A stretch of DNA of 64,000 nucleotides from a virus. Its lineage: Duplodnaviria; Caudoviricetes. Numbering within the stretch: position 1 is the first letter of the stretch; every line of letters begins with the position of its first letter. This document shows positions 1-47,243 of this stretch, in pieces. The notes beneath the pieces were generated by a model. That model saw only the letters and a list, made by a program, of their open reading frames with translations. It did no database searches and was not told the DNA's origin. The position numbers and the translations under genes are program-made. Where the stretch lies: IMG/VR virus record IMGVR_UViG_3300012979_000030, positions 32,001 to 96,000 of that record. One strand, 5' to 3'.

Positions 1-283
1 TTTCATCTTTATAATCATCAATTGTTGCACAACCTGTTGCTATTTTAACACCAATATAATCATAACTTTTTAATTCTTTTTTCAATTCAAATATTCTTTT
101 TTCATTATTTGGTGTGTAACCACTTAATGGTGCATAACCTTTTATATACCAATTACCATTATAAGATTGTTCAACATCTAATAATTGCATACCTCTTTTT
201 TTATAAAGTTCTACATTATTACCTAATCCAACTTTACATTTTTTTGTTCTTGTATTTGTTATTATTGCCCACATCTTACTCAT
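1..283 (-). CDS. Partial small tail-associated protein (tail-fibre assembly-like); runs off the window start
   Basis: ATG at 283 overlaps the stop of 276..875 (ATGAGTAA). Open frame MSKMWAIITN...DVEQSYNGNWYIKGYAP...LKSYDYIGVKIATG to the window edge. Absent from the ORF track because it has no stop. Confidence 0.6.
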   Translation of the reverse strand, partial: MSKMWAIITNTRTKKCKVGLGNNVELYKKRGMQLLDVEQSYNGNWYIKGYAPLSGYTPNNEKRIFELKKELKSYDYIGVKIATGCATIDDYKDE

Positions 284-875
284 CTACTTCTCCTTTAAAT
301 GGATAGAATGATAATTGAACTGTTCCAGAACTTCTTTCATCAATATACACACTATCATTTTTTCCAATCATTATTGTTGTTGTATATGATTGATTTTCAC
401 CTGCCCACAATTCTAATATAATCACAGGTGATGACTCTGATGGTTTAAATCTAATAATACCACCATTACTTACACGAACATAAATAAAACCATTCATTGG
501 TGCAACAAATGTTTGTCCTGTTATTTCATCAATTGTTTCACCTGAATTATAATCAGGAACAATCAATGATGAAATTTTTGTTTTTGCAACACTTGTAATA
601 TTACTTAAATCTGTATCAGCTGGTGAAATTGCAGCCATATCACCATCTGGATTTATCCATATTTTTGATTTTTCTACACTTGGTTCTTCATTACTAATAA
701 TTACAGCATTTCTACCAACATCTGCATATGTTCTACTTGATACAGAAAAGTCTGTATCATTTAAGTCTTCTTTAACCACATAGATTTCATTTAAATTTTT
801 TGTTGTTAAAGAATCATATTGCTCTTTTGATAACACATTTATTTGTAAATTTGTTGTATTCTCAGTATTTGCCAT
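276..875 (-). CDS. Putative tail-fibre/virion protein
   Basis: N-terminal TTNLQINVLSKEQY...EIY module shared with 45789..46607; DTDLSNIT and TFVAPMNGFIYV motifs typical of phage fibre proteins. Confidence 0.6.
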   Translation of the reverse strand: MANTENTTNLQINVLSKEQYDSLTTKNLNEIYVVKEDLNDTDFSVSSRTYADVGRNAVIISNEEPSVEKSKIWINPDGDMAAISPADTDLSNITSVAKTKISSLIVPDYNSGETIDEITGQTFVAPMNGFIYVRVSNGGIIRFKPSESSPVIILELWAGENQSYTTTIMIGKNDSVYIDERSSGTVQLSFYPFKGEVDE

Positions 876-1325: not shown

Positions 1326-1577
1326 ATGTATATGGAGAAATCTATTGTTGTTCCGAATGGAACTACTGTCCGATGGAGAGTATATTGTGATGGATATGAA
1401 GAAGAATCCGGTATTGAAACAATTACCGGAAATAAAAGACTTTTAGTTGATTTAGAGTTAATTCCGGTTGAAGTAGATATTATTGATTATGAATTTACAA
1501 ATGAAGATAATATTGTAACATTAACAAAATATATAGGTTCCGAAACAAACGTGATTATGCCTGTTTTAATGGGGTGA
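1326..1577 (+). CDS. Small adaptor-like protein: half PEGA-like domain plus C-terminal LRR N-cap motif
   Basis: KSIVVPNGTTVRWRVYCDGY...LVDLE followed by DYEFTNEDNIVTLTKYIGSETNVIMP; GGAG RBS; start may be 1332. Confidence 0.65.
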   Translation: MYMEKSIVVPNGTTVRWRVYCDGYEEESGIETITGNKRLLVDLELIPVEVDIIDYEFTNEDNIVTLTKYIGSETNVIMPVLMG

Positions 1578-1580
1578 TAA

Positions 1581-2780
1581 ATGGCAATAACATTAGCAAA
1601 AGAAATACTTGCATCTCCAACTACTTTTAGAAACAATTCAAATATAGTTTCTGTTGATACAATGAATATTCCATGGGAAAATGACTCTATGGAATATAGT
1701 TTCAGCAATTGTTATAACCTTAAAGAGGTTCATAACATTTCAAATGATGTTATAAATTTAAGTTACACTTTTTATAATTGTTCAAATTTAACAAAATGCC
1801 CGGAAATTCCATCAAATGTATCAAATATGAGTTATACATTTTGTGGTTGTAACAATTTGAATGTTGCACCAACAATACCAAATAGTGTAACAAACATTGT
1901 TGGTTGTTTTGCAGATTGCCATTCATTAACATATACACCAACAATTCCAGAAAATATAACCAATTTGCAATCTACATTTTATAATTGTTCTAATTTAACA
2001 TCATTTCCAACAATACCAAATAGTGTATCAGATATGACACAAACCTATGCACTTTGTAAAAATATTAATGGTGTTATCACATATCCAACAAATATTGAGT
2101 GCTTAAGAGGAACATATGCATATTGTGATAATATAACATCTATTCCAAACATACCAGCATCAGTAACAGATTTATATGGAACATTTGAGGGATGTATTAA
2201 TGTTAGTGGAGATATTTACATACTTTCTGACAAAGTTTTAGATTGTAAAAATATATTTAATGGAACTTCTCAAATAAAAAATATATACATTCCATTTAAT
2301 TTTACAAATGATTATGCTGAAACTCTATATTGTTATAGTTCTGATTATGGTTATGATTCAATTTATATAAAATGTTTCAAAAATTCAGCACAAGTTTATT
2401 ACCAAAACGGTTCTATAAATGATAACATCAAGAATATTCAATTCAATGAATCAAAAACAGAAATCATTGTTGAATCATATTCAAATACATCAACATATTC
2501 AATAGATACATCAAATAATATATTAATAAATCACACAAATGGTTCACAATCATTGACATTAAAGTCTTTTATTGATGCAGGATATGATGGATATGGAACA
2601 TATGATGGTGTATACATTAAAGACATTTTAACATCTCAACTTCCACAAATACCTGAAGATGTCGTAGATATAAATTTAAGTGAATATGAAACAAGAACAT
2701 CAAATTATAAAACAGAGTTAATAAAATATATTGGAACCAATACAAGTGTTGTTGTTCCATCAACTGGGTTTGAGGGGTAA
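1581..2780 (+). CDS. BspA-like leucine-rich repeat protein 1 (about 8 repeats)
   Basis: 23-aa IPxxVxNMxxTFxxCxNL repeats; C-terminal ELIKYIGTNTSVVVP motif. Confidence 0.85.
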   Translation: MAITLAKEILASPTTFRNNSNIVSVDTMNIPWENDSMEYSFSNCYNLKEVHNISNDVINLSYTFYNCSNLTKCPEIPSNVSNMSYTFCGCNNLNVAPTIPNSVTNIVGCFADCHSLTYTPTIPENITNLQSTFYNCSNLTSFPTIPNSVSDMTQTYALCKNINGVITYPTNIECLRGTYAYCDNITSIPNIPASVTDLYGTFEGCINVSGDIYILSDKVLDCKNIFNGTSQIKNIYIPFNFTNDYAETLYCYSSDYGYDSIYIKCFKNSAQVYYQNGSINDNIKNIQFNESKTEIIVESYSNTSTYSIDTSNNILINHTNGSQSLTLKSFIDAGYDGYGTYDGVYIKDILTSQLPQIPEDVVDINLSEYETRTSNYKTELIKYIGTNTSVVVPSTGFEG

Positions 2781-2782
2781 CA

Positions 2783-3832
2783 ATGAAGACAAGACAAACA
2801 TTTTTAACATCAACAACATTTCAAAATAATCAATTAATTGAACATATTGATTGTAATAATGTAGTATGGAAAGGAAATTCAATATCATATGCATTTGCTG
2901 AATGTTCAAATTTAAAATCAATATCCAATATTAACAATAATGTATCTATTGTAAGTTATGCATATAAAAACTGTTCAAATTTATCAACACCACCAACATT
3001 ACCAAATAGTGTAACAAATATTGAGGGTGTTTATCAAGGATGTTCATCATTAACTGATATTCCTCATATTCCAGACAGTGTAACAAATATGTCATATACA
3101 TTTGCTGAATGCACAAACATCAAAAAATTATCAACATTACCAAACAGTGTATCAAATATGTCATATACATTTAGAAATTGCTTAAATTTATCATCTGTTT
3201 CATATACGTTTGATAATGTTTATAATATGGAAGGAACATTCCAAAACTGTATTAGATTGAATGGTGATATTCAAATAATATCTGAAAAAATTGGAAATGC
3301 AAATCTTTGTTTTGATAATTCTGGAACTTCCACAAAAAATGTTTATATTCCATTCAATTCAACCAAAAGACATTTATATTGTTATAGTAGAAATATAGAA
3401 GATTATGGATTTGAAAAATATTATATAGATGTTTATCCAATAAATCTATATGGGACTCAATTACCAGCATATGATGACAATGGAATCAATACTGGATATA
3501 CATTTTGGTTTACATCTAAAGATATTAATAGACCATTATTAGGTAAACCAAGTTCTGATGGAATTGGAACAACATATTCTGGTATTACTAGGGATATTAA
3601 GAATGATACATATGTCAATTTAGATGAACCAATTCCAACTATTACATATAATTCATTTATAAATGCTGGTTATAAAACTGATGGGTCATTGGATAATGTT
3701 TATTTGAAAGATTTTACTGAATTAGTTGCACAAGGTTACACCATAACAAATACTGAATCAACAGTATATCTAAATACATATATTGGAATAGAAACAAATA
3801 TTATAACACCAAAGTATTCTTGGGTTCAATAG
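2783..3832 (+). CDS. BspA-like LRR protein 2 (about 6 repeats)
   Basis: Same repeats; C-terminal VYLNTYIGIETNIITP motif. Confidence 0.85.
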   Translation: MKTRQTFLTSTTFQNNQLIEHIDCNNVVWKGNSISYAFAECSNLKSISNINNNVSIVSYAYKNCSNLSTPPTLPNSVTNIEGVYQGCSSLTDIPHIPDSVTNMSYTFAECTNIKKLSTLPNSVSNMSYTFRNCLNLSSVSYTFDNVYNMEGTFQNCIRLNGDIQIISEKIGNANLCFDNSGTSTKNVYIPFNSTKRHLYCYSRNIEDYGFEKYYIDVYPINLYGTQLPAYDDNGINTGYTFWFTSKDINRPLLGKPSSDGIGTTYSGITRDIKNDTYVNLDEPIPTITYNSFINAGYKTDGSLDNVYLKDFTELVAQGYTITNTESTVYLNTYIGIETNIITPKYSWVQ

Positions 3833-3840
3833 GAGAAATT

Positions 3841-5049
3841 ATGAGTGGATTATTACCAACAACACTAGTCAATACAACATATGCAAATAATAGAAACATT
3901 GTTTCTGTTGATTTAAATGAAGTTCCATTTTATAATAACTCAATGGCTGGTGCATTTAGTGGTTGTTCTAATCTAATATCTGTATCAAGTATCAATGAAA
4001 ATGTATCAAATATGTATCAAACATTTAATGGTTGTTCTAAATTAGTTAATGCACCAGATATTCCTAATGGTGTAACTGATATGAATGGGACATTTAGGTA
4101 TTGTTCTAAATTAGTTAATGCACCAGTTATCCCTAATAATGTTGTTAATATGAGTAGTACATTTAGTGGTTGTCAGAATCTAGTCAATGCACCTGTTATT
4201 CCTAATAGTGTAACTGATATGTATACTACATTTGGTTCATGTAGCAACCTAGTTAATGCACCAGATATTCCTAATAGTGTAACTAATATGCATCAAACAT
4301 TTTATTATTGTTATAATCTAGTTAATGCACCGGTTATCCCTAATAGTGTTGCTAAACTGTATCAAACATTTTATTACTGTAATAATCTAGTTAATGCACC
4401 TATTATCCCCAATAGTGTAACCAATATGTATAGAACATTTAGTGGTTGTCAGAATCTAGTCAATGCACCTGTTATTCCTAATAGTGTAACTGATATGAGT
4501 GGGACATTTAATGGTTGTTCTAATTTAGTCAATGCACCAAATATCCCTAATAGTGTTAAAGACATTAGTTATACATTTTCCAATTGTTCTAATCTAGTAA
4601 ATGCACCTGTAATTCCTAATAGTGTAACTAATATGAGATATACATTTAGTGGTTGTTCTAATCTAACAAGTAATATATACATACAATCAAAAAACATAAG
4701 AAATGCATATCATTGTTTTTATAATACATCACTAACAAAAAATGTATATATTCCATTTAAATATGAAAATGGTGAATATACAAAGACATATAATGCATTT
4801 GAAAATGCAGGATATACAGAAGAAACAATTGTTAATGGTGTTAAACTATTTGATAGTAATTATAACTACTATACTTTAACATTAAGAGTAATACCATCTG
4901 ATGCTGATGTTTTATCAGTAGATCCAAATATTAATGGATATATTGTTGATGTTACTGATTATGAATATCAATTAACAGATGGTGGTTCATCAGTAATATT
5001 AGGTAAATACATTGGTAATGATGTTGAGGAAATTATGCCAAATATTTAA
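3841..5049 (+). CDS. BspA-like LRR protein 3 (about 11 repeats)
   Basis: ATG 3841 after AGGAG RBS (track start 3820 is TTG); NAPVIPNSVT repeats; C-terminal VILGKYIGNDVEEIMP motif. Confidence 0.85.
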   Translation: MSGLLPTTLVNTTYANNRNIVSVDLNEVPFYNNSMAGAFSGCSNLISVSSINENVSNMYQTFNGCSKLVNAPDIPNGVTDMNGTFRYCSKLVNAPVIPNNVVNMSSTFSGCQNLVNAPVIPNSVTDMYTTFGSCSNLVNAPDIPNSVTNMHQTFYYCYNLVNAPVIPNSVAKLYQTFYYCNNLVNAPIIPNSVTNMYRTFSGCQNLVNAPVIPNSVTDMSGTFNGCSNLVNAPNIPNSVKDISYTFSNCSNLVNAPVIPNSVTNMRYTFSGCSNLTSNIYIQSKNIRNAYHCFYNTSLTKNVYIPFKYENGEYTKTYNAFENAGYTEETIVNGVKLFDSNYNYYTLTLRVIPSDADVLSVDPNINGYIVDVTDYEYQLTDGGSSVILGKYIGNDVEEIMPNI

Positions 5050-7380
5050 AGGGACAAAAAATGACAAAGGTTTATGTATCAAATGTTTATGCCAATAGTC
5101 AATTAACATTTATAAACAACAAAAATATCATTTCTATTGATTGTAATTATGTATCTTGGGTCAATAATACAATGTCTAATGCATTTAGAAATTGTTCTAA
5201 TCTAGTTTCTGTATCAAACATCAATGAAAATGTAACTGATATGAGGAATACATTTAGTAATTGTTGTAGTCTAGTTAATGCACCAGAAATTCCTAATAGT
5301 GTAATTGATATGTGGGAGACATTTAATAATTGTTATAATCTAATAAATGCACCAGTAATTCCTAATAGTGTAATTAGGATGGTTAATACATTTAATAATT
5401 GTTGTAGTCTAGTTAATGCACCTGTTATCCATAATGGTGTAACTGATATGAATGGGACATTTAGGTATTGTCGTAATCTAGTTAATGCGCCAGTAATTCC
5501 TAATAGTGTAACTAATATGAGTGATACATTTTATAATTGTTCTAATCTAATAAATGCACCAGAAATTCCTAATAGTGTAACTGATATGAGTGGAACATTT
5601 GGTTATTGTTCTAATCTAATAAATGCACCAGAAATTCCTAATAGTGTAATTAGTATGGAAGGGACATTTGCTGGTTGTAATCTAGTCAATTTTCCTGTTA
5701 TTCCTAATAGTGTAATTGATATGAGTACTACATTTGCTAGTTGTAATAATCTAGTCAATTCACCTATTATTCCTAATAGTGTAACTAGAATGTTTCGAAC
5801 ATTTTACGATTGTCCTAATCTAGTTGATGCACCTATTATACCTAATAGTGTTATTAATATGGAAAGAACATTTGATAATTGTACCAATCTAGTTGATGCA
5901 CCTATTATTCCAAATAGTGTTGTTAATATGAGTGGAACATTTTTTTATTGTCCTAATCTAGTCAATTTTCCTGTTATTCCTAATGGTGTAACTGATATGA
6001 GTTCTACATTTTATCATTGTGAAAAACTGCTTAATTCACCTGTTATCCCTAATAGTGTTACTAATATGTATGGGACATTTCAAAATTGTTTTAATCTAGT
6101 CAATGCACCAGTTATTCCTAATGGTGTAACTGATATGTGGAGGACATTTGATAATTGTCGTAATATAGTCAATGCACCTATTATACCTAATAGTGTAACT
6201 AAGATGGTTAATACATTTAATAATTGTTCTAATCTAACAGGTAATATATACATTCAATCAGTAAACATAAGTAATGCAATGGGTTGTTTTTATAATACAT
6301 CACTAACAAAAAATATATATATTCCATATACATGCACAATAGCATATTATAAAACTTTTAATAGTGGTGATACATATTACTTTGTAAAAAATTATAATAT
6401 TGGTGAACCAATTTATTATTATGATAATGGTCAATATACAGGACAAACAATAAAAAGTATTTTTGAGGCAGTTGGATTCTTCTATGACCAAAATTACAAA
6501 TACTATTATGATAATTCATCCGTTTCTGTTTCAGAAGAAGTTGAACCATATACAACACAAACATATAATTCATTTATTAATGCTGGTTATGATGAAAACG
6601 GAACAAAACATAATGTTTATTTAAAAGATTATAAAACATTATTTGATGTTAATTTAACAGATTACACACATACAATTGAAAATAATGTTGCAACAGTAAC
6701 AGCATATATAGGACAAGGTGGTGATATTACATTACCATCAACACTAAACAAATAGGAGAACTTTATGACAACAGTTAACAAAGTAATTTACTCTAATACA
6801 ACATTTACAAATTGTTCAAATATTGTATCAGTTGATTGTAATTATGTATCTTGGACTAATAACTCAATGTCTAATGCATTTAAAGATTGTTCCAATCTCA
6901 AATCTGTTAATAATATAAGTAAAAGTGTTACTAATATGTATTATACATTTAGGAATTGTCAAAATCTAGTTAATACTCCAGTAATTCCTAATAGTGTGGT
7001 TAATATGTATGGGACATTTCATTATTGTTATAATCTAGTCAATGCACCTATTATACCTAATAGTGTAACTGATATGAGTTATACATTTTATAGTTGTCAG
7101 AATCTAGTCAATGCACCAATAATTCCTAATAGTGTAACTAGTATGAATATGACATTTTATTGGTGCAAAAACATAGTCAATGCACCCATCATACCTAATA
7201 GTGTAACTTATATGAGTGGGACATTTGAAGATTGTTCTAATATAGTCAATGCACCCATCATACCTAATAGTGTAACTTATATGAGTGGGACATTTGAAGA
7301 TTGTTCTAATATAGTCAATGCACCTATTATACCTAATAGTGTAACTTATATGTTTGGGACATTTTCTAATTGTTATAATC
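4010..7380 (+). repeat. 69-nt (23-aa) coding tandem repeats in LRR genes 3-5
   Basis: Consensus cctaatagtgtaactNNNatgNNNNNNacatttNNNNNNtgtNNNaatctagtYaatgcaccN; near-exact adjacent copies start at 7201 and 7270. Confidence 0.9.
5061..6755 (+). CDS. BspA-like LRR protein 4 (about 16 repeats)
   Basis: Same repeats; C-terminal ATVTAYIGQGGDITLP motif. Confidence 0.85.
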   Translation: MTKVYVSNVYANSQLTFINNKNIISIDCNYVSWVNNTMSNAFRNCSNLVSVSNINENVTDMRNTFSNCCSLVNAPEIPNSVIDMWETFNNCYNLINAPVIPNSVIRMVNTFNNCCSLVNAPVIHNGVTDMNGTFRYCRNLVNAPVIPNSVTNMSDTFYNCSNLINAPEIPNSVTDMSGTFGYCSNLINAPEIPNSVISMEGTFAGCNLVNFPVIPNSVIDMSTTFASCNNLVNSPIIPNSVTRMFRTFYDCPNLVDAPIIPNSVINMERTFDNCTNLVDAPIIPNSVVNMSGTFFYCPNLVNFPVIPNGVTDMSSTFYHCEKLLNSPVIPNSVTNMYGTFQNCFNLVNAPVIPNGVTDMWRTFDNCRNIVNAPIIPNSVTKMVNTFNNCSNLTGNIYIQSVNISNAMGCFYNTSLTKNIYIPYTCTIAYYKTFNSGDTYYFVKNYNIGEPIYYYDNGQYTGQTIKSIFEAVGFFYDQNYKYYYDNSSVSVSEEVEPYTTQTYNSFINAGYDENGTKHNVYLKDYKTLFDVNLTDYTHTIENNVATVTAYIGQGGDITLPSTLNK

Positions 7381-7589
7381 TAAAGGGTAATGTATATATT
7401 CAATCAGAAAACATAACAAATGCATATAATTGTTTTTATTGTGCTTTTAATACACCATTGACAAAAAATGTATATATTCCATTTAAATATGAAAATGGTG
7501 AATATACAAAGACATATAATTCATTTATTAATGTAGGATATAATGAAAATGGAACAAAACATAATGTTTATTTAAAGAATATTAACTAA
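6765..7589 (+). CDS. BspA-like LRR protein 5 (about 8 repeats), last member, lacks the YIG..P tail
   Basis: Same repeats; ends at HNVYLKNIN directly after the C-cap. Confidence 0.85.
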   Translation: MTTVNKVIYSNTTFTNCSNIVSVDCNYVSWTNNSMSNAFKDCSNLKSVNNISKSVTNMYYTFRNCQNLVNTPVIPNSVVNMYGTFHYCYNLVNAPIIPNSVTDMSYTFYSCQNLVNAPIIPNSVTSMNMTFYWCKNIVNAPIIPNSVTYMSGTFEDCSNIVNAPIIPNSVTYMSGTFEDCSNIVNAPIIPNSVTYMFGTFSNCYNLKGNVYIQSENITNAYNCFYCAFNTPLTKNVYIPFKYENGEYTKTYNSFINVGYNENGTKHNVYLKNIN

Positions 7590-8893: not shown

Positions 8894-10780
8894 ATGACAG
8901 TTAGAATACAAATGAGAAGAGATACTGCTGCTAATTGGATTAAATATAATCCCATTTTAGCAAGTGGTGAAATTGGTCTTGAAACAGACACTAGTAAAAT
9001 AAAAGTAGGTAATGGCAATGATGTATATACAGATTTACCATACAAAATAGTAACAACAGAACAAATCAATTTAATTAGTCAACAACAATTGACAGGTGAA
9101 TCAATTACAGGTGGTGCTATTAAATATGGTATTTGGTATGCTGTGTCATCTGGTAATGTTGCTAGAAATAGAACTGTTACAGATTTCATTGAATTACCAA
9201 CAACACATAATCATGAATTGTTGTTTAAAATACCATTGCTTGATTTAAGTAGTCCAGAATACCCATTTATATCATTATATAAAGCACCTAGCAATGATAC
9301 TGCATCATTGGTTGGATATTTTAAAAGAGATGGTGGAACATTAGGTGGATCAGAATTAACAATTTCTGATGTAAAATGTGTTGCAGATACAACAATTAAT
9401 AGTTCACCATATTATTTGTATGAACCATCAACAAAAACACTTAGTTATAATCCATCAGAAGTAAAATATATTAGATGTTCATTACAAGATGCTCAATTAA
9501 CATATGAATATACTATTACAACACAAAATGTTGTTGAAAGTGTTGATATTACACATGGTGTTATCAAGTCAACACATATTGAACCAACATATCATTATTC
9601 AAATGTTGTTCGTGGTAATATGTATAATAATAAAACATATATACTTCCAGAAACAACTGGAAATGTTGCAGCAGCAGCAATGATGACATTGACATCATTA
9701 GAAGATGGTTCAACATTTTCTTGCCCTACTCGTGTATTAACAGAACCAATTGAATTAAAATATGATGGTCTTGTAATAGATGGTACAATCTATGACTACC
9801 CAGGTGGTGGTTATGATACATTGTTATTTTATGACGAAAATAATACACCAATTGAAGGGTATGAAGGTATCAATGGTGCTTTAAATATAATTACAACAAA
9901 TCAAATTGATATTGACTCAAGTGTGTCTAAATTAACAATTGTGACAAGTAATTCAACAACAGCACATATAAAAGTTCCACCTACCTACAAATATGTAAGA
10001 TCTTCAACAACATTTACTCCAAATGCTGGTATAGAAAATGGTGGTATAATTGTCAAGTATCATTATATTGGTGAACCAGAAAAAAATATTATTACATCAA
10101 CAACATTAGATGAATATATTGATGGTAAAATTAAATTGCCTACACAAACATCTGGAACATATCATTGGTCAGAAAACTATGGTAAATCGGTTGTTGCTCT
10201 TGGTGGTTCATTTGCTACAACTGGATATGCTCAACGTGCATATGATATTTGGAATGAAAAATTAGGATTATCATATAAATCAGTTGCAGTTGGTGGTGCT
10301 GGTTTCTGTGTTGGTTCAACATTTGTAACACAAGCAACCAATGCTCCTGTTGCAGACATTTATGTAATTTGGTGTTCAACAAATGACTTTGCAAATGGTA
10401 AACCAATTGGAACAAAAGATGATGATTATGCAACCACACCAACACAATGGTCTGCATTTAAAAAGGTTATAGAAACCTTATATACTAAAAACCCAAATGC
10501 AAAAATTTGTTTATTCACATCATCACCACATTTAACAAATGCAAAAGGTAATGAAGAAGGTATTGGTAGTGCAAGTTCATTGACACCATTAAAAGAATAT
10601 GTTGATGCACAAATTGCTGTATGTAAACATTATAGTATTCCTGTGTTGGATCAATATTATCAATCAAATCATAACTCATTTACAAAATCATTGGTATGTA
10701 AAAGTGGTGATTTCCATTTAACTCCATATGGTTATGAAGTTATGGCAGGAAGACAATTGCAAATGTTAGCAAGTTTATAA
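8894..10780 (+). CDS. Tailspike/fibre protein: Mtd_N-like N-terminus plus C-terminal SGNH/GDSL esterase
   Basis: RIQMRRDTAANW...NPILASGEIGLETDT..IKVGNG N-terminus; SGNH blocks ALGGSFA, AVGGAG, WCSTND, DFHLTPYGY. Confidence 0.8.
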   Translation: MTVRIQMRRDTAANWIKYNPILASGEIGLETDTSKIKVGNGNDVYTDLPYKIVTTEQINLISQQQLTGESITGGAIKYGIWYAVSSGNVARNRTVTDFIELPTTHNHELLFKIPLLDLSSPEYPFISLYKAPSNDTASLVGYFKRDGGTLGGSELTISDVKCVADTTINSSPYYLYEPSTKTLSYNPSEVKYIRCSLQDAQLTYEYTITTQNVVESVDITHGVIKSTHIEPTYHYSNVVRGNMYNNKTYILPETTGNVAAAAMMTLTSLEDGSTFSCPTRVLTEPIELKYDGLVIDGTIYDYPGGGYDTLLFYDENNTPIEGYEGINGALNIITTNQIDIDSSVSKLTIVTSNSTTAHIKVPPTYKYVRSSTTFTPNAGIENGGIIVKYHYIGEPEKNIITSTTLDEYIDGKIKLPTQTSGTYHWSENYGKSVVALGGSFATTGYAQRAYDIWNEKLGLSYKSVAVGGAGFCVGSTFVTQATNAPVADIYVIWCSTNDFANGKPIGTKDDDYATTPTQWSAFKKVIETLYTKNPNAKICLFTSSPHLTNAKGNEEGIGSASSLTPLKEYVDAQIAVCKHYSIPVLDQYYQSNHNSFTKSLVCKSGDFHLTPYGYEVMAGRQLQMLASL

Positions 10781-38822: not shown

Positions 38823-39272
38823 TTATAATGGACCATAGAAAAAATATAAGTATAATGATTGGTTTTGTGTTAAATTTGTAAGTGTTAACTCATAATAATA
38901 TGGTCCATCACCACTTACATCACAACCAGTTGCACTATACTCCATAACACCATTACCACTACTTTCTGGGTTAGAAGATAAATCTGTTAAATATAATGCT
39001 TTAACATTATTTCTATCAAATGTTATTGTAGTGGGGGTATCATCATAGTATTCATGTTGGTGTAAAACATTACCATTATCATCTGTTATCTTAAAATCAA
39101 CCACACCACTTCCATCATATGTTATTGTTAATGTTGCGGGTTGCTCTTCCAACACAACATCAATAACTTTATCACTATCAACAAAAACATTACCTTCAAC
39201 CGTTGAATAACCTTCTTTACTAACAATGTATGACATATATGCATTTGTTGGAACTATGATTGTTTTACTCAT
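38823..39272 (-). CDS. Virion protein beginning with a half PEGA-like domain
   Basis: ATG 39272 with GGAG RBS; MSKTIIVPTNAYMSYIVSKEGY...IDVVLEE. Confidence 0.65.
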   Translation of the reverse strand: MSKTIIVPTNAYMSYIVSKEGYSTVEGNVFVDSDKVIDVVLEEQPATLTITYDGSGVVDFKITDDNGNVLHQHEYYDDTPTTITFDRNNVKALYLTDLSSNPESSGNGVMEYSATGCDVSGDGPYYYELTLTNLTQNQSLYLYFFYGPL

Positions 39273-39282
39273 ATTATCTCCA

Positions 39283-41901
39283 TTACCTATAATATACAGG
39301 GTGTTTAAGTGATACAAATTGAACACCAAATACATCTGCATCTGATTCATAGACTGGTTCACAAATTACTTCATAAAATAAGAAATCTTTATTATACCAA
39401 TTATCACCATACTTGGTTTCTCTTTCATTCATCTTATTCAAATAGTATCTATTTGTTCCTGATTCATAATATCCCAAATCTAATGTTGGAAAATATTCCT
39501 TTGATAATTCTGTATTCAATTCATCAATATTTAAAACTTTTAAAATGTTTGCATCAAATTCAAAAACATCTCCTGTTTTAAATTCTTGTAAACATGAATA
39601 ATAAACAGAATTGTAAATTATAACATCACCAACATAATAATGTGTTTCTGATTCCCAATTCTTTGCTTTTTTTCTTTTCCATTCAGGCAATGATTCAACT
39701 TCATAATTTAAAAATCTTACATATAATGAACCATCTGTATCTGTTTTAACATCATCTTCTGTTATCAATGGTAGAACAATATCATATTCACTTGGAACAT
39801 TTGTAATTTCTATCTTTGTATTATTTCTATCCAAACATAATGGGTTTATTATCTTTTTTAAATAATATGGTTCACATGATTCATCCATTAATAAAAAACT
39901 ATTACCATTTTCATACAATTTTGAACCATCTACACCACAAGGATGAAACAAGATTTTTTTCATAAACACATTATTACTATCATATATACAATTGTGTTCA
40001 TATTTAACAATTTGATCATAATCATGTATATTCATATCATCTGATATTTTATATTCATTGGTTTTAATGTCTTTATACAAATAAACAATTCTGTTTATAG
40101 TTTTTATATCAAATAATTGTTGATTTCCTTGTGAATAATAATACTCACCACCAATTCTTTTAAGATATATCTTTTGTGATAAAATATCTCTCACATTTTT
40201 AAAGTTAAATACATTATATGTAACTCTTGGATTTGTCTTAATATCTCCATATATCTCTGCATTTGAATCATAAATTACATTATTGAAATTTAATTCTGAA
40301 TCTTTGTGTATCAATTCATCATCTTTCATTTGTTGTAATTTTAATTCAAAATCATAATTTCCATTTTTTATTTCTTTCCAATCATATGTTAATTCATCAA
40401 TCTCTTTGTAAAATACTTCATAATTTTCAATTGACTCACCATAATTATTAACCTGGGAATGTGTTAAACCAACGGTTTTTCCAAATCTAACTACTTGTGC
40501 ATTGCCAAAATCTAACATATGTGATAAAATTTCTCTATCATAACAACACAATGTTGCAACATGAATTTTTGGAAATGAATCAACAATAAAATTACTATTA
40601 TCACTTTTATACATAGTATTTGGATTAAATTGTGTCTTTATATCATTATATTCATCTCTGTATTCATTGTTTATTCTTAAATACAACTTTATTGAATTTT
40701 TTCCCAAACCTTGAGACAATTTCATAATAACATTTTTAATTGATGTTATGTATCTTGTTTCTGCTCTAATTGTAAATTTATATTCACCACTTTGTTGACT
40801 CTCTAAAACACCACCAAATACACCATTATCATTCAATATTAAACCTTTGGGTATATTTCCATCACAAAGATAATATTTTATTATTTCACCATCTTCGGTT
40901 GTTGGTGAGGGAAGATATCCAATAACTTCATTACCAATATAATAATTACCCAAATCAATTGTATCTTCTGTTGGCCAAACTATTTGATGTTCTTTTGATA
41001 CATCATTTGTTTTAATACTAAATTGTCTTGGTTCAGATTTTATTATTTCACCATCTGATAATTTTGTTGCAACAACATAGAAAAAATATTCATATAATTG
41101 AGTTGAAGTTATTGAACCCTCAATTCTACCTGTCATTGCATTTATATATAATCCAGGTGGCAATCTATATTCATCACCAAATGATTTATCCAACTCATAT
41201 GAAACTGTACTTACACCAGCAACATCATATGCAACAACTCTAAATGTTGAAATCTCACCAAATGATAAATTACCCAAATTTCCTGGTTCAGTTATCCAAA
41301 GTGGTTTAGTTGATGATGTTGGTTTAATGATATGTAATTTAATTGATTTTTTTAGTGATGGTGTATATTCTATACCATCAACATATACATTAACATCAAA
41401 AGTATAATCTGTTTTGTTTTCATCCAATACATTCACAGAACCATATAATACACCATCTGTATTAAATCTTAAACCTTGTGGTAACTCACCACCAATTTTT
41501 TTAAAAATTTCATTTCCATTTTTATTCAACAATTTTAATTGGACATTTACCTCAGTATACATTGTTATATCCAATGTTTCATCAACAGAAGCATCCCATT
41601 CCAATTGTTTGTTAATTGATTGTATTTCAAAATATCTATCACTAAAATCTATTTTTTGACCATATTCATCATATTCTGTTAATCTTATCGTTACATAATA
41701 ATTTTCATTTTTAACAATAGATGGTAAATTACCATAAATTCTAACATATCCATCACCCAATGTAATAGATACATTTTCAGGTAATGTAGATGATAAAATC
41801 TTCATATCTACTGTCAAGGCATTAAAATATGATTTATAATCAACCAATGAATTTTCATTAGCAACTATATTATGTTCCTCATCGTTCCATATAATAGACA
41901 T
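39283..41901 (-). CDS. Large structural protein with putative Ig (He_PIG-like) repeats, baseplate-associated
   Basis: Repeated GELPQGLRF.DGVLYG, LPPGLYINAMTGRIEG, IPKGLILNDNGVFGG and P.WITEPG.LG motifs. Confidence 0.7.
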   Translation of the reverse strand: MSIIWNDEEHNIVANENSLVDYKSYFNALTVDMKILSSTLPENVSITLGDGYVRIYGNLPSIVKNENYYVTIRLTEYDEYGQKIDFSDRYFEIQSINKQLEWDASVDETLDITMYTEVNVQLKLLNKNGNEIFKKIGGELPQGLRFNTDGVLYGSVNVLDENKTDYTFDVNVYVDGIEYTPSLKKSIKLHIIKPTSSTKPLWITEPGNLGNLSFGEISTFRVVAYDVAGVSTVSYELDKSFGDEYRLPPGLYINAMTGRIEGSITSTQLYEYFFYVVATKLSDGEIIKSEPRQFSIKTNDVSKEHQIVWPTEDTIDLGNYYIGNEVIGYLPSPTTEDGEIIKYYLCDGNIPKGLILNDNGVFGGVLESQQSGEYKFTIRAETRYITSIKNVIMKLSQGLGKNSIKLYLRINNEYRDEYNDIKTQFNPNTMYKSDNSNFIVDSFPKIHVATLCCYDREILSHMLDFGNAQVVRFGKTVGLTHSQVNNYGESIENYEVFYKEIDELTYDWKEIKNGNYDFELKLQQMKDDELIHKDSELNFNNVIYDSNAEIYGDIKTNPRVTYNVFNFKNVRDILSQKIYLKRIGGEYYYSQGNQQLFDIKTINRIVYLYKDIKTNEYKISDDMNIHDYDQIVKYEHNCIYDSNNVFMKKILFHPCGVDGSKLYENGNSFLLMDESCEPYYLKKIINPLCLDRNNTKIEITNVPSEYDIVLPLITEDDVKTDTDGSLYVRFLNYEVESLPEWKRKKAKNWESETHYYVGDVIIYNSVYYSCLQEFKTGDVFEFDANILKVLNIDELNTELSKEYFPTLDLGYYESGTNRYYLNKMNERETKYGDNWYNKDFLFYEVICEPVYESDADVFGVQFVSLKHPVYYR

Positions 41902-41904
41902 TTA

Positions 41905-42525
41905 TTAATATCCTTTTGATAATGATATTATCTTATCAATTTCTCCAATCATTTCATCACTTAAACAACAATCATTAGTTGCTGGTTCATCTGAATAACA
42001 ATCATCTGTGGCACAAATAGTAAATGTTGTTGGTTTACAATCATAGCGAGACATATCAACATCATAATTTGAAAAACAACTTGGTCTTAATGTTTCTATC
42101 TCACCACAATCATATCCTTTCCAAAATTGTTCTAATTCAGAGTTAGAAGCACCATAACCATTGTCTTTTTCATCTGTTATAATTTCACCAGCAACTAATG
42201 AATAATCCCTACCATCAGATGATAATTCTATATCATTTTCAGCATATTCTTGACCTAAATCATATGCATTTTGCAAATCTTCATCTGAATTCATATCTTC
42301 ATTTTTTGTTTGAACATCAGCAATTAAACAATCATATACTTCCATTGTTAATGGATTTGTTCCATCAGAAAATGCAACCAATTTCTCCATAACTTTGTGC
42401 ATTGCAACATCATCTTTAGCATCTTCATGCATAAATTCAAACAATCTCATCAACAATGACATTGATAAAATAATATTTTTATTATTTGTTTTATTATTAA
42501 TACTTCCTAAAACAGAATCTGACAT
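41905..42525 (-). CDS. Acidic hypothetical protein, probably late/virion
   Basis: LLMRLFEFMHEDAKDDVAMH motif; TATAAATA at 42559-42566 upstream. Confidence 0.6.
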   Translation of the reverse strand: MSDSVLGSINNKTNNKNIILSMSLLMRLFEFMHEDAKDDVAMHKVMEKLVAFSDGTNPLTMEVYDCLIADVQTKNEDMNSDEDLQNAYDLGQEYAENDIELSSDGRDYSLVAGEIITDEKDNGYGASNSELEQFWKGYDCGEIETLRPSCFSNYDVDMSRYDCKPTTFTICATDDCYSDEPATNDCCLSDEMIGEIDKIISLSKGY

Positions 42526-42571
42526 AATTACATCTCCTATTACATTCTTATATGTAATTATTTATAAAAAG

Positions 42572-42598
42572 AAACCCCATAGTAATGCTATGGGGTTT
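42572..42598 (-). terminator. Terminator after groEL
   Basis: AAACCCCATAG-taatg-CTATGGGGTTT. Confidence 0.75.
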
Positions 42599-42619
42599 TA
42601 TACAAACACTTATTAATTT

Positions 42620-44242
42620 TTACATCTGAGGATGTTTCATTAATTGATTCATTTTAATAATTTCATCAATATCATCAATGATTAAACCCTCTACTGTTAA
42701 TAGTGAACCTGCAACAGATGAACCATTTTCAAGAGCACATCTAACAACCTTGGTTGCATCAATAATACCTCTTTCCATTAAATCACAATATTCATCTTTA
42801 CTAGCATCATATCCAAAATTAAAGTCTTCATTCTCTTTAACTTTTTCAATTACAACTTCACCAGATTTACCTGCATTTTCTGCAATTACTTTTAATTGAG
42901 ATTCAATTGCTTTAATGACAATGGAATAACCAATTGATTCATCTTTTGATAAGTGTTCATGTGTACCAATCTCTTTGATGGATTTGATTAATGAAATACC
43001 ACCGCCAGGTAAGATACCTTCTTCTAATGCTGCTCTTGTTGCACAAACTGCATCATCAACACGGTCTTTGATTTCATTTAATTCAACCTCGGTTGCTGCA
43101 CCAACTCTAATAATTGCAACACCTGATACTAATCTTGCCAATCGTTCTCTTATTTTTTCTTTATCATATGCTGATTGAGAGTTTTCAATTTCTCCCTTGA
43201 TTTGTGTAACTCTTTCTTCAATAGTGTCATTATCACCCATACCATTGATAATAACTGTTTCATTTGGTGAAATTTTAATTTTACCACAACTTCCTAAAAC
43301 AGATACTCCAATCTTTTCTAAGTCATTACCTAAAATTGCAGATACAAATTGCCCACCAGTTAAAATTGCAATATCTTCCATTGTGGATTTTCTAATGTCA
43401 CCAAATGATGGTGCTTTTACAACACATGATTTTAATGTACCCTTTAAATGGTTTTGGATTAATGCACCCAATGCTGAATCATCCATTTCATCAACAATCA
43501 TTACTAATGGTCTTCCTGTATGTGAAACTTCTTCCAATAAAGGTAAAATTGATTTTAAGTTATTAATCTTGCCATCATATAAAAATATCAATGGATTATC
43601 AAATTCAACTGTTTGTTTTTCTAAGTTTGTCATAAAATATGGAGACAAATAACCTTGGTCAATTTGGAGACCTTCAACAAATTCTAACTCCGTTTTTAGA
43701 CCTTTTGCCTCTTCAACAGTTACAACACCCCATTTACCAACTCTATCAATTGCACTTGCAATCAATCCACCAATTTCTTCATCACCATTTGCTGAAATTG
43801 TTGCTAATTGTTTAATTTCTTCATTTGTTGTAATTTCTTTAGAATGTGATTTTATGGTATCAACTAAATCTCTAACTGCTAAATCAATGCCTTTTTTAAG
43901 TTGAACAGATTTGCAACCTCTGTCAATATATTTTAAACCTTCTTCTGCAATTGCTTCTGCAATAATACAAGTGTTTGTTGTTCCATCACCAGCATCTTTA
44001 CCAGTTTTTTCAGATGCTTGAATAATTAATTTGGCACCCTCACCCTCTTCTTTTGATAACTCAAAAGATTTAGCAACAGTAATACCATCTTTTGTGATTT
44101 TTGTTGCACCCCAAGGTTGTTGGATAGCAATTGTTCTACCACTAGGACCAGCAGTTGCTGAAACAGCTTCAGAAACTAATTTCATACCTTTAAACAATTT
44201 GGTTCTTGCTTCATCACCACTAATATATTTTTTAATTGTCAT
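42620..44242 (-). CDS. groEL: Chaperonin GroEL (Cpn60)
   Basis: ITKDGITVA, AGDGTT, ATISANGD, GYLSPYF, VKAPSFGD, EEGILPGGG; no GGM tail. Confidence 0.97.
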   Translation of the reverse strand: MTIKKYISGDEARTKLFKGMKLVSEAVSATAGPSGRTIAIQQPWGATKITKDGITVAKSFELSKEEGEGAKLIIQASEKTGKDAGDGTTNTCIIAEAIAEEGLKYIDRGCKSVQLKKGIDLAVRDLVDTIKSHSKEITTNEEIKQLATISANGDEEIGGLIASAIDRVGKWGVVTVEEAKGLKTELEFVEGLQIDQGYLSPYFMTNLEKQTVEFDNPLIFLYDGKINNLKSILPLLEEVSHTGRPLVMIVDEMDDSALGALIQNHLKGTLKSCVVKAPSFGDIRKSTMEDIAILTGGQFVSAILGNDLEKIGVSVLGSCGKIKISPNETVIINGMGDNDTIEERVTQIKGEIENSQSAYDKEKIRERLARLVSGVAIIRVGAATEVELNEIKDRVDDAVCATRAALEEGILPGGGISLIKSIKEIGTHEHLSKDESIGYSIVIKAIESQLKVIAENAGKSGEVVIEKVKENEDFNFGYDASKDEYCDLMERGIIDATKVVRCALENGSSVAGSLLTVEGLIIDDIDEIIKMNQLMKHPQM

Positions 44243-44251
44243 CCATTTCTC

Positions 44252-44539
44252 CTATCTAATAATACCTAAAATTTCTTCTTCTTTAAGAATAGTATATTCT
44301 ACACCATCTTCTTCAAATTTTTGTCCACCAAGTCTCAAAAAGAAAACTCTATCATTTGGTTTAACAGTTGTTGGTGTTAAAACACCTGTTTGTTCATGGA
44401 CTTTACCTGGACCAACAGTAATAACTGTTCCTGTTGATGGTTTTTCTTTTGAATTATCAGGAATATAAATTCCACCAGATGAAACTTCTTTTTCTTCATC
44501 TTTTTTAACTACAACATAATTAAATAAAGGTTCTAACAT
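44252..44539 (-). CDS. groES: Co-chaperonin GroES (Cpn10)
   Basis: PLFNYVVV...SSGGIYIPDNSKEKP..G.VITVGPG...EEEILGII. Confidence 0.96.
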   Translation of the reverse strand: MLEPLFNYVVVKKDEEKEVSSGGIYIPDNSKEKPSTGTVITVGPGKVHEQTGVLTPTTVKPNDRVFFLRLGGQKFEEDGVEYTILKEEEILGIIR

Positions 44540-44619
44540 ATGTATTTCTCCTCAATTATTATATAACTGAGTTATAATAACATATTATTTAAAGAATTAC
44601 AAAAATATTTTTTATTCAA

Positions 44620-45483
44620 TTAAAGCGGTGCATTAACCTTATGGGTTTCTATTGTTAGTGTTTGTGGTCCTTCAACAACTGTGTACCAATCCTGTTCAAC
44701 ATAAGGATATTCTGGATGGTCACCCCACTCATCATTTATTGTTATTCCAACACAACATGATAATCCCTCTGATTGCGTAGCAACCAATAAGTTGTCACCT
44801 GTATTACAGTTAATTGTTTTTCCATTTAATTCAGATGCTATTGATACTGGATTTGATACTTCACCACGTGTTCCACATGAATAATCACCAACAGAGCAAT
44901 ATACAAGTGGGATTCCACTTGTTTCTATTATGTTGAATGTAATAGATGCAGTATATGATGATAATTCTAATACAATGTTCTCTGTTGTATCTTCATTTAT
45001 AATCACAGAGGCAGATTGTGTAGTATATCCATCCTTACTTACACTATAATTAACAGAAGTTCCATTAGCTACCGTAATACTATTACCATCTTGTGTATAT
45101 CCATCTGCTGTTAAAGTAACTATTGCATCACTTGGTGTTGGATTAATTGTGAATGTGTAGTTTTCACCATTGGTTTTTTTAATAGTGTATTCAACTGTTG
45201 CATCTGATGGTGTTGTATTAATGACAACTGTTTTTGTATCCATAAAACCTACAACAATATAATCAAAACTTTTATATATATCGGTTTCTTTTGTTACATT
45301 ATTTGAAAATTTTGGTATAATAAAACCAGTCGTTGAAACAATTGGGTCAATAATACTTTGTTTTATATCTCCATTAATATCTTTCCAATATATATTAACA
45401 GATGGTTCAGAATCAAATTCAAAGTCAAATTCTTTTTCTATTTGATTATATGTATATGTTCCTGTTATAAATGATTCTGTCAT
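44620..45483 (-). CDS. Virion protein with a PEGA-like domain
   Basis: YTFTINPTPSDAIV...SITVANGTSVNYSVSKDGY...IVLE (complete domain) plus an extra VINTTPSDATV half. Confidence 0.65.
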   Translation of the reverse strand: MTESFITGTYTYNQIEKEFDFEFDSEPSVNIYWKDINGDIKQSIIDPIVSTTGFIIPKFSNNVTKETDIYKSFDYIVVGFMDTKTVVINTTPSDATVEYTIKKTNGENYTFTINPTPSDAIVTLTADGYTQDGNSITVANGTSVNYSVSKDGYTTQSASVIINEDTTENIVLELSSYTASITFNIIETSGIPLVYCSVGDYSCGTRGEVSNPVSIASELNGKTINCNTGDNLLVATQSEGLSCCVGITINDEWGDHPEYPYVEQDWYTVVEGPQTLTIETHKVNAPL

Positions 45484-45498
45484 ATTACACATCCCTTA

Positions 45499-45771
45499 TT
45501 ATGAAATTTCATATGTTGTTTCAATACTATCTGTATATGAATATATACCATCAGAGTTTATTACTTCAAATTCAACAATTGCATTTTCTGGTAATGTTTT
45601 TATAGTAAATGTATAATCTGTTGACACTTCCAAAATAACGGGTATTGTTTTTGTTTCATCAGCAATAATTTGGTTTCTCTTTGTTTTATAACCATCTGCT
45701 TCAACAGCATATCTAATTGTTGAACCTTTTGGTACTGTTATTTTATTTCCATCTTGTATATATATACTCAT
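45499..45771 (-). CDS. Small permuted PEGA-like protein
   Basis: QDGNKITVPKGSTIRYAVEADGY...ILE precedes YTFTIKTLPENAIV, so the halves are in reverse order. Confidence 0.65.
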   Translation of the reverse strand: MSIYIQDGNKITVPKGSTIRYAVEADGYKTKRNQIIADETKTIPVILEVSTDYTFTIKTLPENAIVEFEVINSDGIYSYTDSIETTYEIS

Positions 45772-45788
45772 GATTTAACCTTGTATTT

Positions 45789-46607
45789 TCATCCCTTAAT
45801 TGCTTTCAACAAATCATATACTGTTAATACTTCTTCTTTAAAATCTTCTGGGATACCATCAAATATTTTATCACCACCACTTGCTCTAACAAATTCTTTT
45901 GAATTACTTATTATTGTTTCATTGTTTATATTATCAACTGTTCCATAAACATCTAATTCAGTTGATGTATATGTTTTAAACCCAATTTCTGGATTTGGAA
46001 TTGTGTATATTTGTGTTTCTACTTGTTCAGTTATATTTGACCAACACCACGCTTTATTCAACCTATTTACAATGTTTGATAATGACATATCATTTGATAT
46101 TGCCCCATCATCTGTAATATAACATACCCATTCGGGGTGAAGATTGGCAATATCTTGTTCTTGATATTCTGCTAATGTCCCAACCCATGTATATGTTGTT
46201 GATTCACCATCAGCATTTTTATTTACAATACCAATAACTTGTAGTTCATCATTATCATTTTTTGTTATTGTTGTTTCATCAACTCCCATATATCCACTAG
46301 AACTAATCATTTTTGTTCCATCATAAACATATGAATATCCTGTGGATTTTGAAATATATATAATATCACTTTCTGGTATTATACCATTATCCCAACCATT
46401 ATTATATGTGAATATTTTATTATCGGTTGATGAATAATATCTATCACCATTTGTTGGGTTCAATGGTTCTTCACCAACAGATGACAACATTATAACATTT
46501 TCATCTTCAACAAAATATAATTCACCAACAGATGGTTCTATATCATTATATTGTTTTTTTGATAAAATGTTTATTTGTAAATTAGTTGTTGATATATCAG
46601 TTGACAT
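45789..46607 (-). CDS. Tail-fibre-like modular protein
   Basis: TTNLQINILSKKQY...ELYFV, P.NGDRYY, VDETTIT and WVGTLAEY modules. Confidence 0.65.
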   Translation of the reverse strand: MSTDISTTNLQINILSKKQYNDIEPSVGELYFVEDENVIMLSSVGEEPLNPTNGDRYYSSTDNKIFTYNNGWDNGIIPESDIIYISKSTGYSYVYDGTKMISSSGYMGVDETTITKNDNDELQVIGIVNKNADGESTTYTWVGTLAEYQEQDIANLHPEWVCYITDDGAISNDMSLSNIVNRLNKAWCWSNITEQVETQIYTIPNPEIGFKTYTSTELDVYGTVDNINNETIISNSKEFVRASGGDKIFDGIPEDFKEEVLTVYDLLKAIKG

Positions 46608-46691: not shown

Positions 46692-47243
46692 ATGATTTTA
46701 AATCAAAATATGAAAGTATATGATGATGGGTATATAAAATTTAAATACTCCCAATATTGTAATTTAGTCAAGGAGAAACTAAGGACTCATCAAAAACCAC
46801 ATGATAGAAGGTATAAACAGGGGTTTTTTGTTCCTTTACACCCATCTAAATGTATGAATGTTATGGAAACAAGTGAACCACAAGTTATAGTTTATAGAAG
46901 TGATTGGGAAAGAAAATTTGCAGAAAAATGTGATGAAACACAATCTGTAATAAGATGGGGGTCAGAACTTGTAAAAATACTATATAAGAATCCAGTAAAA
47001 AACAAGATGTCTTTCTATGTCCCAGACTTTTACATAGAATATCTGGATACAAATAAGCAATTAAAAAAAATGTTAATAGAAATAAAACCAATGGGGCAAT
47101 CAAAATTAAGAGAGGCGAACAATGGTTATGATAAATTACAATTTGCCATTAACACTATGAAATGGGCAAGTGCAATTGATTTTTGCAAAAAAAGAAATAT
47201 AGAATTTAAAGTTATGACAGAAAGAGAACTAGGCATATATTAA
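46692..47243 (+). CDS. Head-completion nuclease (T4 gp4 / TnsA-N-like)
   Basis: QGFFVP.HP.K, YRSDWERKF..CD, WGSE, Y.PDF, IEIKP, N..KW..A..FC. Confidence 0.85.
   Translation: MILNQNMKVYDDGYIKFKYSQYCNLVKEKLRTHQKPHDRRYKQGFFVPLHPSKCMNVMETSEPQVIVYRSDWERKFAEKCDETQSVIRWGSELVKILYKNPVKNKMSFYVPDFYIEYLDTNKQLKKMLIEIKPMGQSKLREANNGYDKLQFAINTMKWASAIDFCKKRNIEFKVMTERELGIY

Follow-up and report, generated by a model that had tools for sequence, protein, structure and literature searches.

The stretch of phage DNA analysed here, 64,000 nucleotides (nt) long and called the window below, covers positions 32001-96000 of a 106.5-kb IMG/VR virus record (IMGVR_UViG_3300012979_000030, G000:C1) with a CheckV completeness of 41%; its G+C content is about 27% and it uses the standard genetic code. 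Its minus strand carries a cluster of fibre-like genes in which one beta-sandwich domain, Pfam family PF25641 (Head_fiber_dimeric), is present both as a complete unit and as part-units. In minus-strand order the cluster encodes a 272-amino-acid (aa) fibre-like protein (45789..46607), a 90-aa protein (45499..45771), a 287-aa protein (44620..45483), GroES and GroEL, a 206-aa protein, an 872-aa core fibre or adhesin (39283..41901) and a 149-aa protein (38823..39272), and an operon of BspA-type leucine-rich repeat (LRR) genes lies on the plus strand at 1326..7589. We call a unit that lacks its first two or three strands a socket, and the missing N-terminal hairpin a plug. The question pursued here is whether the plug of one protein may complete the socket of another.

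The complete unit lies in the 287-aa protein (44965..45162, residues 106-173). It scores 52.1 bits against PF25641 (E value 5.9e-14), where the curated cut-off is 30 bits, and it matches PhiCrAss001 gp29 (PDB 7qof_j) with an E value of 9e-11 and the 66-position homologue profile introduced below with 3e-29, which bears out the report of one complete unit in this gene by the first-pass annotation of the same DNA. A close gp29 relative is 52% identical to it over 66 residues. Structures were predicted by AlphaFold2 (AF2) for single chains only, with the predicted local distance difference test (pLDDT) and the secondary structure as output. The window's complete unit has pLDDT 71-86 and aligns to 1qmu_A and 5aq0_B with a VIA-align Z of 5.8; complete units in the AF2 models align to 5aq0_B, the transthyretin-like domain of carboxypeptidase D, with Z 7.9 and a root-mean-square deviation of 1.9 A over 65 residues, and to 2nsm with Z 7.6. 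The C-terminal domain of gp29 has itself been modelled as a beta-sandwich of type CATH 2.60.40.1120 with carboxypeptidase N (2NSM) as its nearest structure (Bayfield et al., 2023; PMC10172136). The repeated unit is a seven-strand carboxypeptidase-regulatory/transthyretin-like sandwich, as is the C-terminal domain of the PhiCrAss001 head-fibre protein gp29. It had earlier been described as PEGA/CarboxypepD_reg-like, and this holds at the level of fold and superfamily (VIA-align, CATH 2.60.40.1120 type) but not for the PEGA model itself (PF08308), which scores 10.9 and 16.6 bits on the window copies, under its gathering score of 20.8. A unit from a relative (P0081) passes the PEGA model at 33.9 bits, so the PF08308 and PF25641 families overlap.

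The part-units were located with a 66-position profile built from 37 homologue units and searched against all six-frame open reading frames (ORFs) of the 106.5-kb record. Three proteins open with a back half. The 90-aa protein starts with a long socket comprising strands 3-7 (45628..45765, minus strand; profile 21/22-66, E 1.7e-12), and the 149-aa protein with a short socket comprising strands 4-7 (residues 1-44; 39147..39269, minus strand; profile 26/27-66, E 3.1e-10) that runs into a tip domain of about 105 aa belonging to another family. The third is an 81-aa protein at the head of the LRR operon (1332..1577, plus strand), where a short socket (1335..1457; profile 26-66, E 1.1e-8) is followed by an LRR-cap motif. 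All three back halves begin 1-3 residues past an ATG with a Shine-Dalgarno (SD)-like site, and the frame upstream is closed or overlaps the previous gene. Specifically, GGAG lies 6 nt ahead of the ATG at 39272, in a frame other than that of the upstream gene, and AGGAG precedes the ATG at 1332, which is more probably the start of what had been listed as ORF 1326. With this one start moved, the three ORFs that the first-pass annotation had described as opening with the second half only do indeed open so. Against PF25641 the truncated pieces alone score 14-16 bits, as expected of part-units.

The front hairpins are only about 17-30 residues long, and their scores are weak because the pieces are so short. 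In the 90-aa protein a 3-residue link joins the socket to a C-terminal long plug, that is, a front hairpin plus a tail that extends to the stop codon (45520..45615, minus strand; profile 2-30 for the hairpin, E 0.016). The 287-aa protein consists of an N-terminal beta-sandwich (residues 1-80), an orphan front hairpin, the complete unit and a Cys-rich C-terminal region; its hairpin, a short plug of strands 1-2 just upstream of the complete unit (45181..45231, minus strand), covers profile 3-19 with a genome-wide E of 0.21. A candidate third hairpin lies in LRR gene 3 (3841..5049, plus strand), at 4867..4914 between the LRR body and the C-terminal cap, with an E of 6.7 genome-wide and 0.0034 for the single protein. 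Thus, of the three orphan first halves listed earlier, those in 45499..45771 and 44620..45483 stand, both being conserved in orthologues, but the one in LRR gene 3 is not significant alone. The earlier tally of three donors for three acceptors is also incomplete: the record covers about 41% of the genome, and further pieces lie outside the window, among them a 132-aa ORF of the same record, at about G000:C1:26009-26407, with one complete unit and then a hairpin placed exactly at its C-terminus (E 0.0023).

Two other candidates were rejected. On inspection by eye the 132-aa ORF seemed to begin with another socket, which the profile, with a score of -1.3, does not bear out. The C-terminus of the 872-aa core protein was considered as a fourth donor, and its homologues show a conserved core-domain end there, with the long forms of the protein carrying a separate hairpin after it. 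Directly upstream of the 132-aa ORF, the record also holds a 1463-aa open frame (G000:C1:26416..30804, minus strand). It encodes one complete PF25641 unit close to the N-terminal end and a compact unit at the C-terminal end, and its repeated modules resemble those of a 1136-aa protein in a relative (L018).

The truncated ends are conserved in relatives, which we found by searches with the 872-aa, 149-aa and 287-aa proteins and by contig look-ups. The common gene order there is a TnsA-like endonuclease gene on the opposite strand, a fibre gene of about 270 aa, an optional small ORF, the 90-aa family, the 287-aa family, Cpn10, Cpn60, a gene of about 200 aa, the core gene and the 149-aa family. 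A gene of the 90-aa family always lies directly upstream of one of the 287-aa family, with its stop codon in or beside the downstream SD site. All members have the same long-socket start and the same end of long plug plus tail, and between the two come 0 (window; L011, 90 aa), 2 (P0086) or 5 (P0052, P0094) complete units. The long plug of the 90-aa protein is 40-45% identical in orthologues. A word search gave no near-length homologue of the 90-aa protein but itself; the identical gene is present on six independently assembled contigs, so that an assembly error is excluded. In the 149-aa family the 44-residue short socket is common to proteins with unrelated C-terminal domains, and the representatives of ten clusters at 50% identity start in this way. 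The orthologues of the 287-aa protein (P0021, P0095-P0100, P0103) all keep the order N-domain, orphan hairpin, complete unit, and the hairpin motif is kept in 8 orthologue clusters. Across 20+ proteins of related phages the cut points are fixed: sockets begin at profile position 21-22 or 26-27, and plugs end either at 18-19, with the stop codon 2-3 residues on, or at about 30 followed by the tail.

The two kinds of socket were also compared for their rates of divergence. In protein sequence the short socket shares 80-86% identity with relatives in which identity falls to 53% in the core protein and to about 32% in the part after the socket. At the DNA level the socket is 87-89% identical, with 5-6 synonymous versus 6-9 nonsynonymous differences in 44 codons, where GroES has 22 versus 3. 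This pattern would fit an N-terminal attachment module beside which tips have been swapped. The long socket diverges normally, at 58-67% identity and with synonymous changes about as frequent as nonsynonymous ones.

The core protein of the window is a short form, with He_PIG immunoglobulin-like repeats and a CBM5/12-like part, and its gene ends just before the short-socket gene. Its long-form homologues (P0008, P0010, P0015, P0019) run covalently into 5-6 complete PF25641 units, and no terminal part-units were found within +-10 kb of the two long-form loci examined; plugs and sockets thus occur together in the lineage with the short form. In the metagenomes of the Joint Genome Institute (JGI), a degenerate DNA pattern designed on the tail of the long plug had no match.

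Three observations on these families stand apart from the question of assembly. The tip domain of about 105 aa in the 149-aa protein (38823..39140, minus strand) is a separate family for which there is no Pfam model; it turns up again in P0028, P0046 and P0076, exists as small stand-alone proteins and, in P0044, is attached to the C-terminus of an LRR_5 protein. Two orthologues of the 287-aa protein in a related phage, P0021 (L006 45..1304) and P0099, extend further at the C-terminus, into a region that matches Intein_splicing/Hint below threshold (19.9 bits, E 7e-4) and ends in a His-Asn-type motif and then Cys; the window's protein is without this region. Finally, P0101 (L019, ENA NODE_77630, 2 kb at 3x coverage) combines a short socket, two units and a long plug and was considered as proof of module mixing, but because its contig joins the core gene directly to the anchor gene we judged it probably an assembly chimera across a near-identical repeat and did not use it. 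It calls for caution when domain architectures of this family are read.

In three related loci (L012, L013 and L014) a unit is divided between neighbouring genes. The small ORF that precedes the gene of the 90-aa family encodes an 81-aa protein that closes with a 20-residue hairpin reaching profile 18-19. After a gap of 33 nt, which contains two or three in-frame TAA codons and an SD site, the next gene opens at profile 20-21. Read from the genes, a single unit is here divided precisely between strands 2 and 3, its two parts are initiated separately and both are kept, and the two translated fragments add up to exactly one domain. In the window the corresponding fragments are present but not adjacent. 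The plug of the 132-aa ORF ends within one residue of the 81-aa type (profile 18 versus 19), with the stop codon three residues later in the one and two in the other. One unit of a relative (P0075, residues 1218-1283) is the best complete-unit match of both the 132-aa plug (13/17) and the 90-aa socket (20/39), a weak hint that these two may belong together.

When the two L013 genes (81 aa and 225 aa) are joined as a read-through (P0149; multiple sequence alignment, MSA, of 16), AF2 gives a mean pLDDT of 76.4, with the hairpin at 93-94, the socket at 89-95, the linker below 50 and the C-terminal long plug of the same chain at 37-51. In structural alignment the hybrid behaves as a sandwich domain (4yok, Z 6.2, model residues 58-143), and the alignments to three-domain pilin/TIE structures start at residue 60-61, so the pieces of this locus are structurally compatible. 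The corresponding model for the window, in which the two TAA codons separating the 90-aa gene from the 287-aa gene are read through (P0025; MSA of 9), has a mean pLDDT of 54.7 and a predicted template modelling score (pTM) of 0.29. In that model the socket reaches 57-73 with its last strand unformed, the long plug 30-37 and the orphan hairpin 27-28 without strands, the N-domain having 67-84 and the complete unit 71-86. Closure of the 90-aa protein on itself is thus not predicted, and neither is docking of the orphan hairpin on the neighbouring unit; with both plugs unplaced and the socket only moderate, the model offers no solution in cis. The first-pass annotation had allowed that 45499..45771 might be only an intramolecular circular permutant. 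AF2 does not close this chain, as the values for its C-terminal part and the pTM show, but the alignment is shallow there. The N-domain of the 287-aa protein gave only weak lectin or tail-fibre-like structural matches, with Z about 5.

We propose that a PF25641 hairpin completes the truncated sandwich of another protein in trans and so joins an anchor, an extender and a tip, a proposal whose chances of being right we put at about even. The PF25641 sandwich would then be a natural split domain: some fibre-like proteins would start with the socket, and the plug would sit at the very C-terminus of a protein or as an orphan ahead of a complete unit. After separate translation the plug of one chain would insert into the socket of another, rebuilding the seven-strand sandwich and joining the two proteins non-covalently. 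Two cut points would be in use, one between strands 2 and 3, giving a short plug and a long socket, and one around strands 3-4, giving a long plug and a short socket. The anchor, with a short plug, would be a protein of the 287-aa family or the 132-aa ORF. The extender would be the 90-aa family, with its long socket, 0-5 complete units that set the length, and its long plug. The tips, with a short socket, would be exchangeable and would comprise the 149-aa family and ORF 1332, the latter bringing in the LRR chain. The idea that halves complete their partners in trans, put forward by the first-pass annotation, thus gains from the conserved cut points, the split unit of the three loci and the tethered fold predicted by AF2; association in trans, and which plug meets which socket, we infer.

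Several points weigh against this proposal. Partner pairings are not readable from single-chain pLDDT and secondary structure. The lower confidence of the unpaired socket in the window's read-through model is confounded by the alignment, which there holds 2 sequences, and the confidence of the tethered L013 fold is largely homology, because complete units span the join in its alignment. The long plug and the short socket overlap by about 5 profile positions, an inexact fit, and the numbers of plugs and sockets are unbalanced by type in this 41%-complete record. The hairpin of LRR gene 3 falls short of significance by itself (E 6.7). The codon pattern of the short socket may be read as recent recombination as well as selection.

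Of the other explanations, the one that fares best, which we still consider somewhat unlikely, is that the truncated N-terminal units are conserved anchor or recombination-linker modules that bind a partner other than a hairpin (such as the conserved C-terminal end of the core protein, or the capsid) or form homodimers of half-sandwiches, the orphan hairpins serving as spacers or dimer contacts. The short socket is found after the core gene in every case, and between phages whose flanks have diverged far more its DNA is still 87-89% identical, which is typical of an N-terminal fibre anchor used for module exchange; the short-form core proteins end without a canonical hairpin, and PhiCrAss001 gp29 is itself dimeric. 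The imbalance of plugs and sockets by type points the same way. This explanation does not account for the precise cut between the adjacent genes of L012-L014 with both pieces kept, nor for hairpins that lie exactly at C-termini with the same profile end, and the sockets retain the hydrophobic pattern of complete units.

It is also conceivable, though we think it quite improbable, that the halves are tolerated scars of recombination or gene fission in repetitive PF25641 arrays, partly unfolded and without a role in assembly. Breakpoints within units are common in the relatives, where units of P0100, P0103, P0034 and P0060 are cut at profile 42-45 and joined to other domains, and the orphan hairpins are disordered in the AF2 models; the apparent hybrid P0101, probably a chimera across a repeat, fits here too. 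Against this, the two cut points recur, with intact SD sites and ATG codons, among orthologues whose sockets share 58-67% (long) or 80-86% (short) identity. The orphan hairpin motif of the 287-aa family has been kept in 8 clusters, and the end pieces of the 90-aa family persist while its internal units vary from 0 to 5.

That the 90-aa protein is a self-contained circular permutant, or that the pieces are rejoined covalently by read-through, frameshifting, another genetic code or a sequence error, is very improbable: the 90-aa and 287-aa genes do share a frame, as do the 81-aa and 225-aa genes of L013, and the 90-aa protein does hold a back and a front part, but an SD site and two or three tandem stop codons lie in the in-frame spacers, the 149-aa gene and its neighbour are in different frames, recoding TAG as Gln or TGA as Trp does not meaningfully merge the relevant ORFs, the gene is identical in six assemblies, just 3 residues link the last strand to the first with the ends at opposite poles (judging from tandem arrays with 0-4 residue linkers), and AF2 does not close the chain.

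A wider version of the trans-complementation proposal, which we regard as unlikely, would have two orthogonal cuts fix the order anchor-extender-tip throughout a lineage of large phages that encode GroEL, with the LRR chain docking through ORF 1332 and a possible branch at LRR gene 3. Virion appendages would then be put together by a plug-and-socket code that is genetically modular and tunable in length. The first-pass annotation had ORF 1326, now 1332, tether the LRR chain to the virion and allowed a branch at LRR gene 3; a pairing of the LRR gene 3 hairpin with this ORF, and the branch it would create, is a hypothesis that depends on a hairpin not significant by itself. In L011 an LRR protein encoded directly after the core gene has a stretch before its C-terminal cap that matches the back part of a unit weakly (profile 19-65, single-protein E 0.002); the front half that would precede it is a by-eye impression, and the profile detects none. 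If this stretch is a whole unit, LRR gene 3 of the window (hairpin plus cap) and ORF 1332 (socket plus cap) resemble its two halves, a likeness compatible with complementation or with two deletion products. L011 (14782..16118) also shows a gene that ends in the LRR-cap motif, with the next LRR gene starting abruptly, and in P0081 a single chain unites an LRR_5 body and a terminal cap with four PF25641 units.

Some features of the surrounding genes deserve mention in their own right. The phage-encoded GroES (95 aa) and GroEL (540 aa) genes lie amid the fibre-like genes at 42620..44539 (minus strand), a position kept in all relatives, and the two proteins are 83-98% identical among relatives versus 40-55% for the adjoining structural proteins. 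The gene for the TnsA-like endonuclease (PF08722, E 2e-17) sits within the fibre cluster but on the other strand (46692..47243, plus strand) and is found at the same place in L009, L011, L012, L013 and L014. The 272-aa protein has no PDB or Pfam match; a short N-terminal motif (residues ~5-25) is common to it and to the fibre-like proteins of this genome at 276..875 (minus strand) and at L002 496..1401 (minus strand), whose bodies are unrelated, and its last ~12 residues reappear inside small ORFs of 56-81 aa in relatives. A 628-aa protein at 8894..10780 (plus strand), with an Mtd_N domain (the N-terminus of the major tropism determinant) and a GDSL/SGNH esterase domain, is likely a fibre that acts as a deacetylase or esterase; L018 has two similar genes. 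A blastn search of a phage collection gave no match, and when viral contigs were searched for related loci, the 872-aa and 287-aa proteins, the ORF 1332 product and a core alignment as queries brought up either no locus or a spurious GC-rich one (L016).

We regard the observation as solid and the mechanism as plausible but unproven. If plugs do complete sockets in trans, this would explain how receptor-binding tips can be swapped and fibre length changed by moving small genes, not by rebuilding large ones, and why many metagenomic fibre genes appear to begin or stop within a domain. A rule for annotation would follow as well, namely that part-domains at gene ends may mark partners. The joints would also be possible new orthogonal, non-covalent connector pairs for protein engineers. 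Even if the proposal should prove mistaken, the conserved truncated ends would remain markers of the N-terminal anchor and of the recombination joints of an unstudied fibre system.

The nearest relative of known structure is PhiCrAss001 gp29 (PDB 7QOF/8CKB, PF25641), whose unit is homologous and has the same transthyretin-like sandwich. gp29 is a dimer with one intact C-terminal unit and a capsid-binding N-terminal part (PMC10172136), and among the gp29 sequences compared none showed a truncated or orphan piece. The 287-aa protein showed no homology to the capsid-hexon-binding region of gp29 (residues 1-58), the sequence matches covering the C-terminal unit only. In its layout the system resembles tail fibres with an N-terminal anchor and an exchangeable tip, and branched tailspikes such as those of CBA120 and G7C, in that a conserved N-terminal module precedes unrelated C-terminal domains. 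Known phage fibre anchors are triple helices or whole domains and are not known to include pieces of a sandwich domain. There is also a likeness to the phase-shifted repeats ('Velcro') of beta-propellers, since the 90-aa family starts and ends in mid-unit, with the sequence phase offset from the structural one; propellers, however, close within one chain, whereas closure in cis is not predicted for the 90-aa family and its ends are cut at different positions.

The closest functional parallels are donor-strand systems and split-domain tags. A full-text literature search found no description of split PF25641/PEGA-like domains or of donor-strand-type joints in phage fibres. In donor-strand complementation and exchange, as in chaperone-usher pili, type V pili and TasA fibres, an incomplete beta-sandwich is completed by strands of the next subunit, which yields ordered non-covalent fibres. 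There a single C-terminal strand is lacking and a chaperone or a protease is needed; pilins of the chaperone-usher type have an Ig-like fold without its C-terminal G strand, an N-terminal extension as the donor, and a chaperone and usher of their own. In the phage proteins it is an N-terminal hairpin of two or three strands (profile 1-20 or 1-25) that is lacking, in a transthyretin-like fold, which sets them apart from chaperone-usher pilins. No chaperone-usher family was found among the genes scanned, GroES and GroEL being the only chaperones nearby. In SpyTag/SpyCatcher, derived from CnaB2, a related prealbumin-like sandwich is cut into a peptide and a remainder that reassemble spontaneously, and a CnaB domain is indeed among the structural matches (8bdw, Z 6.3 and 4.7). 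That system, an engineered one, relies on a single donated strand and on an isopeptide bond that locks it; no Lys/Asp/Glu isopeptide triad is evident in the phage units, and no search was aimed at one. If association in trans is borne out, the plugs and sockets would be a natural counterpart, within phage particles, of both donor-strand exchange and engineered split-domain tags.

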